4,341 nt of DNA, taken from assembly GCA_037969075.1 (NCBI GenBank), contig JBBKWS010000205.1, positions 1 to 4,341 of the forward strand, written 5' to 3'. This document shows positions 1 to 4,341 of this stretch, in pieces. The first letter of the stretch is position 1. Each line of letters starts with the position of its first letter. This DNA comes from Bdellovibrionales bacterium (GTDB lineage Bacteria; Bdellovibrionota; Bdellovibrionia; Bdellovibrionales; UBA840). The position numbers were made by a program.

Positions 1-3000
1 AGACTCAGCGTCACTCACTTGCTCTTCAACAAGTTGTACGGCAAGGGCGCAGTACTGTGATCCACCGTTTAGATCAGCCATGTAAGCAGCATCGATTGCA
101 GCAAAGCCGTATGGGTTTGCGCCATTTACTTTACCATCTACATAGTTTTTAAATCTAGTATATTTACTAGATGAGGTATTAACATAGGATAGATCAATGA
201 TCAGACCACTTCCTGAAGGAGGAGCGGTTTCAACGACACATGTTGAAAATCTATAGCTACCACTTAAATTTCCATTATTGCAAATGCGGTTTTCTTCCGT
301 GCATGTTTGTCCTGCTGGTACACTAGCACTTGCATAGGCACGAACATTTTGCCCGTTAGCAATCACACCACCCCAAGGTAGGGTGCAAGAAGATGCCGGC
401 GCTTCTGCACAAGCTTGATATTGAAAGCTACCAGAAAGGCTTCTGTTTACACATTCGCGAATTTCAGAAATGCAAGTTCCGCCAACGGGGACAGATGGCA
501 CTTGAAAGGCGGGGATAAATTCGCCAGCTCCTAAGTTTCCGCCCCAGGGTAATTGGCAAATAGGTTTAGTTCCAGCTTCATTTTCAGAGGCTATATTTTT
601 AATAGACTCAAAGCCACCGCTGCAATTTTGATTAAGTACTGCTATGGAAAATAAAGAAAATATAAATACTATTTTTTTAAAGAAAGCTTTGATAAATAAC
701 CCCAAAAGATAAATTTTGCGCTGATGATCAGTATACATTATGTATCGGCCAGGCACCAATTTATCTCAAGGTAAGACAGGTTTTTTTACGTCTCAAATTG
801 AGACATTTTATCTAAAATTTATAGCTAGCTAAGACCTGCCGTATTGATTTGGTTTTTTAATTTTTACATCTAATTCTTTTGCCGCATGCATGGGCCAGTA
901 AGGATCACGCAAAAATTCGCGGGCCATAAATATGGCATCTGCTTTTTCTTCTAAAAGAATTGATTCTGCGTGCTTGGCTTCAGTGATTAAACCAACCGCT
1001 GCGGTTAATATCTTGCTGTCTTTACGAACTCTATCCGAAAATGGGACTTGGTAGCCAGGCTCCAATTTTATTTTTGGATTAGGGATCGATCCACCACTTG
1101 AGCAATCGATAAGATCATAACCAAGTTCTTTTAGTTTTTTAGTAAATGTAACCGAATCATTAAGGTTCCAAGAATTAGAATCCTCACTCCAATCAGTGGC
1201 AGAAATTCTTGCAAAAAGTGGTAAATCCTTTGGCCACTTTTCTCGAACGGCTTTTGCTACCTCTAAAGGAAAACGCATGCGATTTTCTAAACTTTCGCCG
1301 TAGTTATCTTTTCTTTGATTTGAAATAGGCGATAAAAACTCATGGAGTAAATAACCATGCGCCATATGCACTTCTAAAACTTGAAAGCCTGCTTTTAAAC
1401 TTCTCTCGGTCGCACTGATAAAATCAGCCATTACTTTTTTTAAATCAACGTCCGTCATTTCTTTAGGGGGTGGGTCATCACTATTAAACGGGATCGCACT
1501 TGGTCCAAGACTTTGCCAGCCGCCATCAGTGGGACTAACTAGATCGTGTCCCTTCCACGGAGCAGAGGTAGATGCCTTTCTTCCAGCATGGGCAATTTGG
1601 ATCGCACTGACTGAACCTTGTTCGTGCATAAAATCAGTGATTCGTTTAAAACCAGGGATGTGTGCATCCGACCAAATTCCACTATCATCGGGAGAGATTC
1701 TTCCTTCAGGGGAAACGGCAGTGGCCTCAACCATTACAAGACCGGCTCCACCGACGGCGCGACTGCCTAAGTGTACAAAATGCCAATCGGTAGGGTGACC
1801 ATCAACACTTGAATACTGGCACATGGGAGAAACCCAAATACGGTTTTTAATTTCGATGGATTTAATTTTTAGAGGCGTGAATAATTTTGATGACATAATA
1901 CTGTCCTTTTTGAAAATTAAACGTATTGTACTCTACTTTTATTAAGCCGGAAAGGATTGGCTGTTATTTTGAAGTTTGCTATCGGATGAGTTAGTTCAGT
2001 TCGATGCAATGTTCTGAAGTCTAGTTAATAAATATTCTAACATACTGAAACTATTATTGATTTATTCTTACGCACCTTATAACTAAGTTTTTAGTTGATA
2101 GCAACTAAACTCTTAGTTAGTCTTTTGTGTATTGGAGTTAGAATGAAAAAAACTAAGAGCAAAGAATCTGATACAAAGCTAATGACTGAAACCGAGCTGG
2201 AGTTAATGACAATCCTTTGGAAGTTAAAAGAGGGTTCGGTTGCGGACGTGATCGAAAGTCTTCCTAAAGAAAGGGATCTTGCATACACTTCTGTTTCGAC
2301 CATTCTTAGGATCTTGGAACAAAAAAATATTTTAAAAGCTCGCAAAGAAGGTCGTGGTCATATCTATGTTCCACAAATCAAAAAATCAGACTATGAAGCA
2401 AAAACTGTAAAACATGTTGTAGATCGGGTGTTTGATGGAACTCCTGTTGCTTTAGTTCGTCAGCTTTTAGATTCTGGTCAACTGGATGAAAGCGATTTGA
2501 AAGAGCTAAAAAATTTAATCGATCAAGCGGGGAGTAAAAAATGAGTTTAGCTCAGACTCTTTCAACTTATATGAGTGCGAATCTTTTGATCCTGATCGGA
2601 TTTTTAGGGCTTGGTTTGTTTTCTTTGATCTTAAAAAAAATAAAAATGAAAATCGGAGCTGCATACGAACTTAAGCTGCATTATGCAGTGATGCTGTCTG
2701 TTTTTGGGCTGACTTTGATTCATCCGCTTCTTCCTAAAAGCGAAATTTTCTCGCCAGCGGCAAAAGTTTGGTCTGCGCAATCAATTAACAGTTTTGGAGA
2801 AGAGTATACGGCTACCAATGTAGGTGGGTATTTAAGTCTTCCAAGTTCTGCTGGTATGTCTACTGTGCAAGCTGATCAGGTTGTGATTGTTTGGTTTATT
2901 TTAGGAACTGTTCTACTTTTATTAGGTGGTATTTTTATTTTTAAAGATCTAGCCACACTTTTTGGAATTAAAAAACATTCTTTTTTGGTTCGAAAAATTG

Positions 3001-4341
3001 GTTGTGTTCGAATTTATATAAATGATTCTATTCAAGTCCCGTTTTCATTTTGGCTACCTGGGCAAGCCAATGTCATTGTTCCATCTTCTTTGCTGGATAG
3101 ACGCAAAGAATATCAAATGGCAATTGCTCATGAATTGCAACATCATCGTCACCACGATACGAAGTGGGTCTATGCGATGTGGGGACTGCGACTTATTTGC
3201 ATTATTAACCCAGCTGTTCATTTGTGGAACCGCTGGATTTCAGAATTACAAGAATTTGCCTGCGATGAGACGCTGGTCGACCAAAACAAAGTCGAGTCTC
3301 AGGCTTATGCACGCCTCCTCATTGGGGTGGCGAAAACCGCAATCGATCAGAAATATGTTCCTGTTTGCGCGACAGGACTCACATTTATGACCGAAGGCAA
3401 TTTACTCAAAAGGAGAATAGAAAAAATGTTAACAAAAACATCAAACAAACTAGGACGGTCGATCAGTGTTTCGGTCGGACTTCTTATTGCATCAGTAATG
3501 ACGGCTACAGCCTTTGCTTCAAAAGGCTTAGTGCAAGATCGTAGAGTCAGTATGTCACAAGCGAAAGCGATGGTAGCAAAGTCGCAAAGTGAAAGCGATT
3601 TTCCAGTAGTTGTTAATGACTTAGTGCTAAAGCAACTCAACAGATATATCGGGACCCCAGAGGGACGTGAGTTTATGCGAAAAGCACTAGGTCAAATGGA
3701 AGCTCATAAAGAAGTGATCCGCAGTTATTTACAGAAGTATAATATGCCCTTAGAACTTCTTGCAGTACCCATTATCGAATCAGGCTATGTAAACTTGGTT
3801 CCTAAGGATATCGCAAGGGCGGCTGGTTTGTGGCAAATCATTCAAACGACTGCTTGGGGATATGGCCTGCAGGTTTGGGATCAAGTTGATGAGAGACTAG
3901 ACATCGAAAAATCAACGGATGCTGCCCTAAGGTTATTATTAGCAAATAGAGTACGATTTAAAAAATGGGATCTGTCATTAATTGCCTACAATGCAGGGGA
4001 AAAAATTGTAAGTAAAGGAATCCTAAAGACACAATCCCATGATGCCTGGAAACTTATTCGTAATGGCTATGAGGGTAATAAAGATTACTTAGCAAAAGTA
4101 ATGGCCGCCATCATAATTATGCGTAATCCAGAATCGGTAGAATAAAAGAGTTGGGGCTCTTCTTCGGAAGAGTCTCAATCAACATCAAATTTAAATTCAT
4201 GATTCTAATAAATTTGAAGCCAAAACGTAAAAAACCAAGCTCAATAGGCTTGGTTTTTTAATATCAGGTGGCGTCCCCAACGGGATTTGAACCCGTGTCT
4301 CTACCGTGAAAGGGTAGCATCCTAGGCCACTAGACGATAGG

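Follow-up and report, generated by a model that had tools for sequence, protein, structure and literature searches.

A BlaI-type repressor and an M56 protease-lytic transglycosylase fusion in a Bdellovibrionales bacterium: a candidate autoregulated switch with a possible peptidoglycan input

The central result of this analysis is that a 4,341-nt contig of a Bdellovibrionales bacterium (the window, contig positions 1-4,341; source genome 2.5 Mb, 90% complete) carries a repressor-protease pair of the BlaI/BlaR type in which a lytic transglycosylase (LT) domain occupies the sensor position. A preliminary description had proposed such a pair, and the ORFs, Pfam matches, motifs and PDB matches all bear it out, as do an intact protease and a BlaI-type operator. 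We consider it an even call that the two genes form a self-amplifying, autoregulated module in which loose peptidoglycan strands are sensed and more LT is made in response, and we infer that the LT domain itself senses the ligand.

The blaI gene (2143-2544, plus strand) encodes a BlaI/MecI-family repressor of 133 aa, counted from an ATG preceded by GGAG at 2134-2137, and overlaps by 4 nt the fusion ORF (2541-4145, plus strand; 534 aa), which consists of an M56 transducer part (2541-3518; residues 1-326) and a periplasmic LT-bearing part (3519-4145; residues 327-534). Just beyond the fusion stop, a 13-bp hairpin with a UUCG loop (4150-4179, plus strand), whose folding energy of -18.4 kcal/mol (z -5.6) was equalled by none of 200 shuffles, is the probable end mark of the operon and is without a U tail. 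As previously described, the contig terminates in a tRNA (Rfam match at 4272-4341, minus strand, 5' end lost at the contig end), which was not detected by ARAGORN and whose anticodon, TTC (Glu), was taken from the sequence; with its terminator at 4228-4260, it is a convergent neighbour outside the blaI-M56-LT system. As to a possible role of the tRNA as an insertion site, a tRNA occurs in 7 of 59 scanned loci and the window's arrangement in none of them. On the other side lies a divergent gene for a NamA-like flavin oxidoreductase (829-1896, minus strand), which was rejected as a target or conserved partner because the 36 divergent neighbours found among 80 loci fall into 36 separate clusters.

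The M56 protease looks active, to judge from its residues. Pfam places Peptidase_M56 at 46-294 (E 5.9e-20, above the curated cut-off), and Staphylococcus aureus BlaR1 (8exp) is matched by sequence over residues 161-305, while the score against the blaR1_generic model is 39 bits (cut-off 400). The landmarks of the family are all present, namely the HExxH zinc motif (HELQH, 197-201), E238, D242, Y256, R292 and A-F-A at 324-326; among 149 distant relatives (approximately 33-56% identity), H197 and E198 are each kept in 147/147, H201 in 146/147, and E238, D242 and R292 each in 149/149. There are four hydrophobic segments (peaks 13-31, 46-64, 115-133 and 308-326) with the LT domain C-terminal to the last, as the preliminary description had it apart from two segments that differ by a few residues, and the predicted topology puts the fusion in the inner membrane, with the protease inside and the LT domain in the periplasm. 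An outer loop, EL1 (about 65-110), has conserved P65, P72 and W77. The putative equivalent of the autocleavage loop is residues 277-284, in which T281-F282 aligns with BlaR1 Ser283-Phe284 by a hand count on the sequence alignment to 8exp, as for all BlaR1 equivalences given here; this loop is poorly aligned and is the only low-confidence segment of the AF2 model, and while 112 of 120 close relatives share F282, only 37 of 145 distant ones do. After the last helix, a signal-peptidase-like motif, A-F-A/S, could allow the LT domain to be shed: small residues stand at -3/-1 (324/326) in 124 of 149 relatives, although the rule also fits an alternative register, 322/324, in 115 of 147. In BlaR1, a signal-peptidase site has been mapped at Gly331 (PMC9834060).

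The LT domain looks equally active by sequence. It is matched by Pfam SLT at 393-505 (E 2.3e-15, above the curated cut-off) and carries the motifs of the MltD type (E413-S-G-Y, AGLWQ and AYNAG), and P. aeruginosa MltD (8rhe) is matched over residues 382-532, with a score against the MltD model of 77.6 bits (cut-off 508). The AF2 model of the fusion (pLDDT 84, pTM 0.72) recovers the same two structures, 8rhe and 8exp, as fold matches. In the same set of 149 distant relatives, the catalytic Glu, E413, is kept in 148/148, W431 in 147/147 and G486 in 147/148, which runs counter to the earlier proposal that the domain is a sensor rather than an enzyme. N-terminal to the catalytic domain, the periplasmic part has family-specific QDRR and GTPEGR segments; Pfam finds no LysM in the fusion, and its N-terminus is the M56 module, with no lipoprotein anchor. 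Two relatives extend the architecture to M56-SLT-M23, and a search for still longer fused forms (936-2670 aa) returned none at E 1e-30, which is weak evidence.

Upstream of blaI are two copies of the palindrome AACTAA-N4-TTAGTT, box 1 at 2081-2096 and box 2, 22 bp from it, at 2103-2118, both exact motif matches and the sole exact copies in the source genome. A sigma-70 promoter is predicted beneath them (2095-2123, plus strand), with a -35 element TTGATA at 2095-2100, a 17-nt spacer and a -10 element TAGTCT at 2118-2123. Of 72 upstream regions, 67 have the tandem pair without a mismatch; in these 67 the spacer is 17 in 62 and 18 in 5, the G of the -35 TTG is kept in all 67 despite lying outside the box, and A2 and T6 of the -10 element are kept in 51 and 49, respectively. 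Some relatives have TTGACA..TATAAT; the window's own promoter fell under the promoter-scan threshold. We infer that BlaI binds both boxes. The repressor is matched by Pfam Penicillinase_R at 15-128 (E 1.8e-32, above the curated cut-off) and is the only protein in the source genome with such a match; against the named BlaI/MecI models its scores stay under the cut-offs. Its Q107-L108 aligns with Asn101-Phe102, the bond that BlaR1 cuts, and, by analogy, the M56 protease would cut BlaI near this position, where the P1' residue is Leu in 68 and Phe in 3 of 71 sequences rather than a near-invariant Phe. The idea that the operator is unique to the LT form was rejected, since it also lies 5' of blaI genes whose partner joins M56 to TonB_C, Plug, Amidase_3 or a transpeptidase. 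The tandem operator had been missed in the preliminary description.

Which genes does the repressor control? Across a phylum sample of 301 genomes, 44 of the 45 sites examined lie directly 5' of a blaI, the reversed-pattern control gave 0 in all 301 genomes, and in five relatives that are 97-99% complete the operator is confined to the cassette. Single boxes showed no excess elsewhere, with 20 extra boxes in 20 operator-bearing genomes vs 39 in 16 without the tandem operator. In the source genome, the search for a trans regulon was negative, with 20 sites at one mismatch or fewer where 29 permuted versions of the palindrome averaged 31, and a weight matrix found no further tandem site there; the viral contigs gave two operator-like matches, neither adjoining a blaI. 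No third gene is conserved across the 80 loci, and the next gene is convergent in 44 of the 71 loci with data. The only visible target of the circuit thus seems to be its own operon, so that the LT becomes the output, and the earlier suggestion that the switch reports to other genes is not upheld, although BlaI may have degenerate sites in trans. By analogy with BlaR1, the LT domain is probably the input as well.

Genes that follow the cassette in tight coupling tend to encode wall enzymes: 5 of 8 are of this type (a deacetylase, two MepA, a beta-lactamase-family hydrolase and a GH18) vs about 3 of 125 other neighbours, in classes picked after viewing the data and with the two MepA loci being related. 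None of the 80 loci showed a linked beta-lactamase or low-affinity PBP as a conserved neighbour; at one locus, L116, the beta-lactamase-family hydrolase lies just 3' of the cassette and scores under the class C cut-off. An AmpG permease gene lies near three related loci.

The family is patchy. Of 40 relatives, 9 have a match that spans the two domains, in agreement with the earlier report of such matches and with blaI directly upstream in each; over the 80 loci, blaI is directly upstream in 73, five being cut by contig ends and two lacking it. The fusion was not found in the sole same-genus genome (86% complete), and none of the 21 genomes from the order's most-sampled genus has the tandem operator. 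Nor is the scope limited to Bdellovibrionota, the phylum to which the preliminary description had kept: fusions with host-like GC occur in records of Desulfatiglandales (Desulfatiglans), Desulfosarcina, Holophagae and Steroidobacter (including the cultured S. agaridevorans), lineages that are not known to be predatory. In the tree, the pair from Desulfatiglans falls within the Bdellovibrionota rows, as horizontal transfer would predict; in an AU test on 35 rows chosen by hand from the window and the 80 loci, however, a Bdellovibrionota clade was still acceptable (p 0.10), so that the data do not establish transfer. Plasmids gave no match at E 1e-30. The architecture is already represented in the ESM Atlas, by an M56/SLT cluster with 139 members whose name was assigned automatically. 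In addition, a sister cassette with the same layout and a near-identical operator, which accounts for 10 of the 45 sites, carries an FtsI-like transpeptidase, and no separate target was found for it; a 49-row tree was too weak to resolve the order of the swaps between LT and transpeptidase cargo. With this sister transpeptidase, the M23 domain added in some members and the wall-enzyme leaning of the downstream genes, the peptidoglycan input first proposed for the switch is plausible.

How might such a module work? We postulate that BlaI dimers on the two boxes over their own promoter would hold blaI and the fusion low. Uncross-linked glycan strands, accumulating under beta-lactam or other transpeptidase stress, would load the LT domain, which would then signal through a contact with EL1 to the zinc protease and cause BlaI to be cut near Q107-L108. 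The derepressed operon would yield more fusion and hence more LT, some of which signal peptidase would release by cutting at A-F-A/S; the extra LT would clear the strands, the signal would be gone, and fresh BlaI would reset the switch, with a single LT domain serving as both sensor and effector. LTs do remove the uncross-linked strands formed under beta-lactams (PMC8820737). Against the model stand the Leu at the BlaI cut site and the absence of F282 from most distant relatives. As to the contact, W77 of EL1 covaries with P373, R335 and D333; in the full-length analysis, this signal does not rise above the noise, and over 21 independent contrasts an unrelated position does equally well. The covarying residues map to a cap ahead of the catalytic core and outside the cleft, which leaves a BlaR1-like plug unsupported. 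A complex prediction of residues 328-534 with EL1 (62-112) scored 0.02 against a mark of 0.32 and was counted neither way.

Perhaps, instead, the LT domain is cargo only and the operon an inducible source of LT. The signal would then enter at EL1, arise from stress on the membrane or on signal peptidase, or come from a wall fragment in the cytoplasm, possibly formed downstream of the LT's own products, which binds BlaI directly. This would suit a domain whose catalysis is intact throughout, which has a shedding motif and to which some members add M23; it would also suit the AmpG permease near related loci, the dipeptide coactivator model for BlaI (PMC3305447) and the many M56 proteins that have no recognisable outer domain (PMC13492132). 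However, conservation and covariation are seen for the EL1 motif and the QDRR/GTPEGR cap, and BlaR1 uses the domain in the same position as its sensor and cuts the repressor directly (PMC9834060), so we regard the cargo-only explanation as doubtful. Sensing of LT inhibitors such as bulgecin A, with the induced excess of LT outrunning or soaking up the inhibitor, is improbable: the closest solved structures are indeed of MltD with bulgecin A bound, and no separate target was found for the sister cassette, whose cargo is a penicillin-binding domain, but non-covalent binding would presumably make a weaker switch than acylation. Quite improbable, too, is a dosage thermostat with no outside signal, in which spontaneous autocleavage and BlaI turnover fix the level of a potentially lytic enzyme at a low value. 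BlaR1 autocleavage is spontaneous (PMC9834060), Phe is not kept at the BlaI cut site and no inducer was found for CenIR (PMC13492132), yet a strongly constrained membrane protease seems too costly for mere dosage, and the cargo swaps among wall enzymes suggest an input role. Least probable of all is the original proposal of a predator's sensor that reports prey-wall breakdown to other attack-cycle genes, since, although the best 80 genome matches mostly bear Bdellovibrionota names and that phylum is the commonest in the Atlas cluster, no trans operator was found in the genomes scanned, the family is patchy and its carriers include non-predatory lineages.

Returning to the self-amplifying module, we would suggest, more tentatively, that it represents a family of one-operon feedback circuits of Gram-negative bacteria in which the LT is receptor and sole output, the loading of its cleft by loose glycan strands is reported across the membrane and triggers cleavage of the repressor, and the enzyme is shed, with the FtsI-like sister behaving likewise. 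If so, uncross-linked peptidoglycan would be sensed directly in the periplasm, and M56-M23 and M56-amidase proteins might work alike.

The closest known systems are BlaR1-BlaI and MecR1-MecI of Staphylococcus aureus and Bacillus licheniformis, which share with the cassette a BlaI-family repressor, an M56 gluzincin with HExxH..E, and a dyad operator on the promoter; the fusion has equivalents of BlaR1 Asp246, Tyr261 and Arg294 and a candidate counterpart of the Ser283-Phe284 loop, as well as the four hydrophobic segments, EL1 and a signal-peptidase-like site after the last helix. They differ in having a C-terminal SxxK penicillin-binding sensor instead of SLT and a linked beta-lactamase or PBP2a, for which the M56-LT loci have no conserved counterpart. 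Here, in contrast, blaI precedes the sensor gene, the hosts are Gram-negative, Leu replaces Phe at the BlaI cut site, and the operator core is ACTAA-N4-TTAGT, whereas staphylococcal operators have a TACA/TGTA core. The locus falls within the non-canonical BlaIR systems, defined by PF03965 and PF05569 without PF00905 (PMC13492132). One of these, CenIR of C. difficile, likewise has a blaI that precedes the gene for an M56 protein lacking a beta-lactam sensor and is linked to envelope control, but the CenR tail is unstructured and its regulon comprises about 12 other genes (PMC13492132), whereas here the tail is an intact LT domain and no other targets were seen. The novelty claimed earlier is partly in print, in that a peptidoglycan-derived dipeptide acting on BlaI has been published (PMC3305447) and M56-M23, M56-Amidase_3 and M56-TonB_C architectures are already listed, SLT being absent from the architectures with at least 100 entries in the legend of Fig. 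7 of that survey (PMC13492132). The LT-bearing form itself, however, was not found in the searched literature, mostly without subscription papers, and no paper there describes the fusion. According to the same 2026 survey, about 6% of some 15,000 BlaR-like proteins have a beta-lactam sensor, and the ligands of the others are unpredictable (PMC13492132). The M56-LT cassette offers a clean test case among them, with an outer enzyme of known substrate and inhibitor, a defined operator and promoter and a circuit that apparently needs only two genes and could therefore be reconstructed alongside a reporter. Should the LT cleft prove to be the input, it would give cells a direct count of uncross-linked strands, a toxic by-product of beta-lactam action, and the cassette could serve as a biosensor for LT substrates and inhibitors. 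MltD of P. aeruginosa (8rhe/8rhf/8rhi) shares the ES, GLWQ and AYNxG motifs, with 28-30% identity in the structural matches. Enzymes of the MltD type typically have a lipoprotein anchor and LysM repeats, LysM being named in the PDB titles, in place of the membrane protease behind which the LT sits here. Finally, the AmpG-AmpR-AmpC route also links LT-related wall damage to transcription in Gram-negative bacteria; there, AmpR responds to muropeptides that have been imported into the cytoplasm and switches on a beta-lactamase, whereas the reading proposed for M56-LT would be periplasmic, proteolytic and self-directed.

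The two open reading frames of the preliminary description stand at their coordinates, with all three Pfam domains over cut-off: blaI (2143-2544; Penicillinase_R) and, right behind it, a gene (2541-4145) for a 534-aa fusion of an M56 zinc protease (Peptidase_M56) to an MltD-type lytic transglycosylase (LT; SLT domain). A scan of the genome returned no second BlaI, no other over-cut-off M56 match and ten SLT matches in total. By sequence match, fusion residues 161-305 align with S. aureus BlaR1 and residues 382-532 with P. aeruginosa MltD, and a fold search with an AF2 model (45 sequences, pLDDT 84) returned the same entries; the only low-confidence stretch of the model, residues 277-284, is equivalent to the BlaR1 autocleavage loop. 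The window's fusion departs from the family consensus at conserved sites (L259 for C, I433 for F, W439 for R, Q385 for R), and despite these departures its catalytic residues are all kept. An open-ended minus-strand frame at 1-738 starts like a lipoprotein, contains two internal repeats rich in cysteine and has no match in Pfam or NCBIfam.

The fusion belongs to a sizeable family. A word-indexed search gave 413 proteins, with both Pfam domains in 120/120 of the matches listed, and an unindexed search found 465 clusters with an E-value of 1e-30 or better; 149 of the 150 matches listed were aligned. In this alignment the HExxH residues are kept in 147/147, 147/147 and 146/147, E238 (which alignment to the HEXXH...E of BlaR1 makes the third zinc ligand), D242 and R292 (BlaR1 Asp246 and Arg294) in 149/149 each, and Y256 (BlaR1 Tyr261) in 147/149. 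The LT side is likewise kept (E413 148/148, W431 147/147, N484 142/148, G486 147/148), and nothing in the 149 relatives points to a branch of sensors that have lost catalysis. Matches cross both domains in 9/40 relatives, two of which add an M23 peptidase (one scanned, the other its 639-aa twin). Such M56-SLT-M23 triple fusions (639 aa; L041:3292-5211, L042:6640-8559) lie behind blaI and the same tandem operator. Among named genomes, 225 stretches match M56-derived patterns, possibly including other M56 proteins, and the best 80 were kept as loci. Most of these bear Bdellovibrionota names, alongside Desulfatiglans, Desulfosarcina, Holophagae and Steroidobacter records; the names are the submitters', mostly for metagenome bins, with L123 an isolate record. 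Cassette and flank GC agree in 6/6 loci checked. Cassettes in pieces, truncated or lacking one partner (L078, L097, L106, L287, L295, L301, L063, L096) occur as well; loss appears frequent, which fits the patchy distribution, and assembly errors are possible.

Absent from the preliminary description is an inverted repeat at 2080-2119, composed of two AACTAA-N4-TTAGTT palindromes (at 2081 and 2103) that are the only exact copies in the genome (2.5 Mb, 90% complete). blaI lies directly upstream of the fusion in 73/80 loci (5 cut by contig ends, 2 without blaI), and of 72 upstream regions, window included and two cut regions dropped, 67 hold the exact tandem, 3 a tandem with up to two changes and 2 one box. 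Beneath the boxes runs a predicted promoter. Its TTG lies at the end of box 1 and, after a spacer of 17 or 18 nt, its TA...T hexamer lies at the end of box 2; the two hexamers read TTGACA and TATAAT in several relatives. As read from sequence, such a layout is that of a self-repressed operon. The motif also occurs outside the fusion family: by tblastn, blaI adjoins 73 of 122 metagenome or viral matches. Among the loci inspected (10 with a blaI hit and 17 of the 49 lacking one) are tandem repeats, a few operator sites that have no blaI close by, and blaI genes whose partners carry TonB_C, Plug, Amidase_3 or transpeptidase domains. In AT-rich metagenome contigs the same tandem or triple boxes precede non-blaI genes for TPR and DUF456 proteins (L145, L195, L234, L237; L148, L157, L170, L206, L254), candidate trans targets of other BlaI proteins. 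At L292:3001-3036 and L176:2501-2536 an orphan tandem operator, possibly a deleted cassette, is followed by a ribosome-binding-like site and a short HTH-like frame, without blaI. At L140:2501-5036 a polysaccharide deacetylase gene sits between tandem operator and blaI-M56, whose M56 end falls outside the locus.

From the distribution of operator sites, single boxes and neighbouring genes, the only visible target of the operator is its own operon; degenerate sites may have escaped the search. Five relatives of 97-99% completeness have both the tandem and the 16-mer at the cassette and nowhere else. Across the phylum the tandem occurs in 42/301 genomes (49 sites; reversed control 0). Of the 45 sites not already known, 44 have blaI directly after the operator and one lacks it; the 44 comprise 20 M56+SLT, 10 M56+transpeptidase, 5 with M56 cut short or broken and 9 with blaI alone (7 at contig ends). 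Outside the operators, 20 operator-bearing genomes contain 20 single 14-mer boxes between them (none in 10 of these genomes), against 39 in 16 genomes that lack the tandem, in a tally that excludes G005 and three genomes of transpeptidase or unresolved type; in the window's genome, near-matches are no commoner than for permuted palindromes. No gene beyond the pair is conserved across the 80 loci: where data exist, 44/71 loci have a convergent next gene, and the 36 divergent neighbours each form a cluster of their own. In the window a hairpin of 13 bp comes after the fusion stop, and 64/74 loci have a fold of -12 kcal/mol or lower at that place, a count with no shuffled control.

With this gene pair, its intact motifs, an operator on its own promoter and no other visible targets, we postulate, at about an even chance, a self-amplifying module whose topology, activities, shedding, ligand and signalling direction we infer. 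An LT loaded with strands would activate the protease, the activated protease would cleave BlaI, and more LT would be made, part of it shed. BlaR1 has its sensor cleft plugged by loop EL1, signal peptidase can release its sensor at Gly331, and the protein cleaves itself spontaneously and BlaI directly, the latter at Asn101-Phe102 (PMC9834060). The equivalent cut site here is Q107-L108 (Leu in 68/71). The fusion's last hydrophobic segment ends in A-F-A/S, where the -3/-1 rule is best served by register 324/326 (124/149 relatives), with 322/324 also at 115/147. EL1 retains P65, P72 and W77. Over 307 sequences, restricted to loop and periplasmic part, W77 covaries with P373, R335 and D333 (ranks 11, 17, 21), the positions that most often change with W77 in identity-matched sequences; against that, topologically impossible pairs score equally high in a full-length run, and over 21 independent W77 losses P373 (12 vs 2) only ties with V251. 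We read this as a modest hint that EL1 docks on the periplasmic domain at its cap and outside the cleft. That the LT is cargo only we consider a real if distinctly less probable alternative, at perhaps half the weight of the self-amplifying module.

Sister cassettes offer hints on the input (L288, L297, L303, L306, L307, L313, L314, L316, L317, L321, L081:1613-3977, L146). They share the two-gene layout, a closely similar M56 and the box TACTAA-N4-TTAGTA in 10/10 cases; the partner domain, nearest FtsI/SpoVD and not the BlaR1 sensor, has SxxK and SxN/D motifs in 12 aligned sequences. The M56 chassis apparently acquired this penicillin-binding domain in a separate event. Their fusions measure 659-702 aa, keep SxxK and mostly carry KTA/KTS as third motif; no conserved neighbour was seen. 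At L081:3588-4576 transpeptidase and LT cassettes stand head to head, with both operator types in one intergenic region. In eight tightly coupled loci of the LT cassette (next gene on the same strand within 60 nt), five of the coupled genes are for MepA endopeptidase (in two related loci), a polysaccharide deacetylase, a GH18 and a hydrolase of the beta-lactamase family, and the other three for an esterase, an AraC regulator and an unknown protein. Of the other 125 immediate neighbours, 3 count as wall- or lactam-related (Mur ligase, AmpG and an MBL-fold protein, probably no beta-lactamase; Fisher p 1e-5 to 2e-4, with classes set after the data were seen). An AmpG-family muropeptide permease lies one to three genes downstream of the fusion in three related loci (L095, L099, L100), the L095 copy over the TIGR00901 cut-off. 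Uncross-linked strands that accumulate under beta-lactams are cleared by LTs (PMC8820737). Inhibitor sensing by the cassette is unlikely, and dosage control of the operon without any signal slightly more so; the reporting of prey-wall degradation, raised in the preliminary description, is the least probable of all.

Related architectures have been described. A 2026 survey (PMC13492132) puts the number of M56 architectures at 254 and the share of proteins with a transpeptidase domain at about 6%, and it names M23 and Amidase_3 among the common partners; its main text does not contain the word 'transglycosylase', nor do its two supplementary files contain SLT terms, and its full list may include M56+SLT. 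M56-M23 fusions are noted, without function, in an M23 review (PMC9662197), a wall-derived dipeptide was proposed in 2012 to inactivate BlaI (PMC3305447), and the ESM Atlas names the M56/SLT architecture automatically. No paper that describes the LT form, the operator in front of it or the closed loop it makes was found, in a search that bioRxiv supplements and most subscription papers lay outside. The LT-fused cassette is real, conserved and a variant form of non-canonical BlaIR not found in the literature searched. It would work like BlaR1-BlaI, but with neither a penicillin sensor nor a linked resistance gene it falls outside the canonical members of that system and belongs to the non-canonical BlaIR group.
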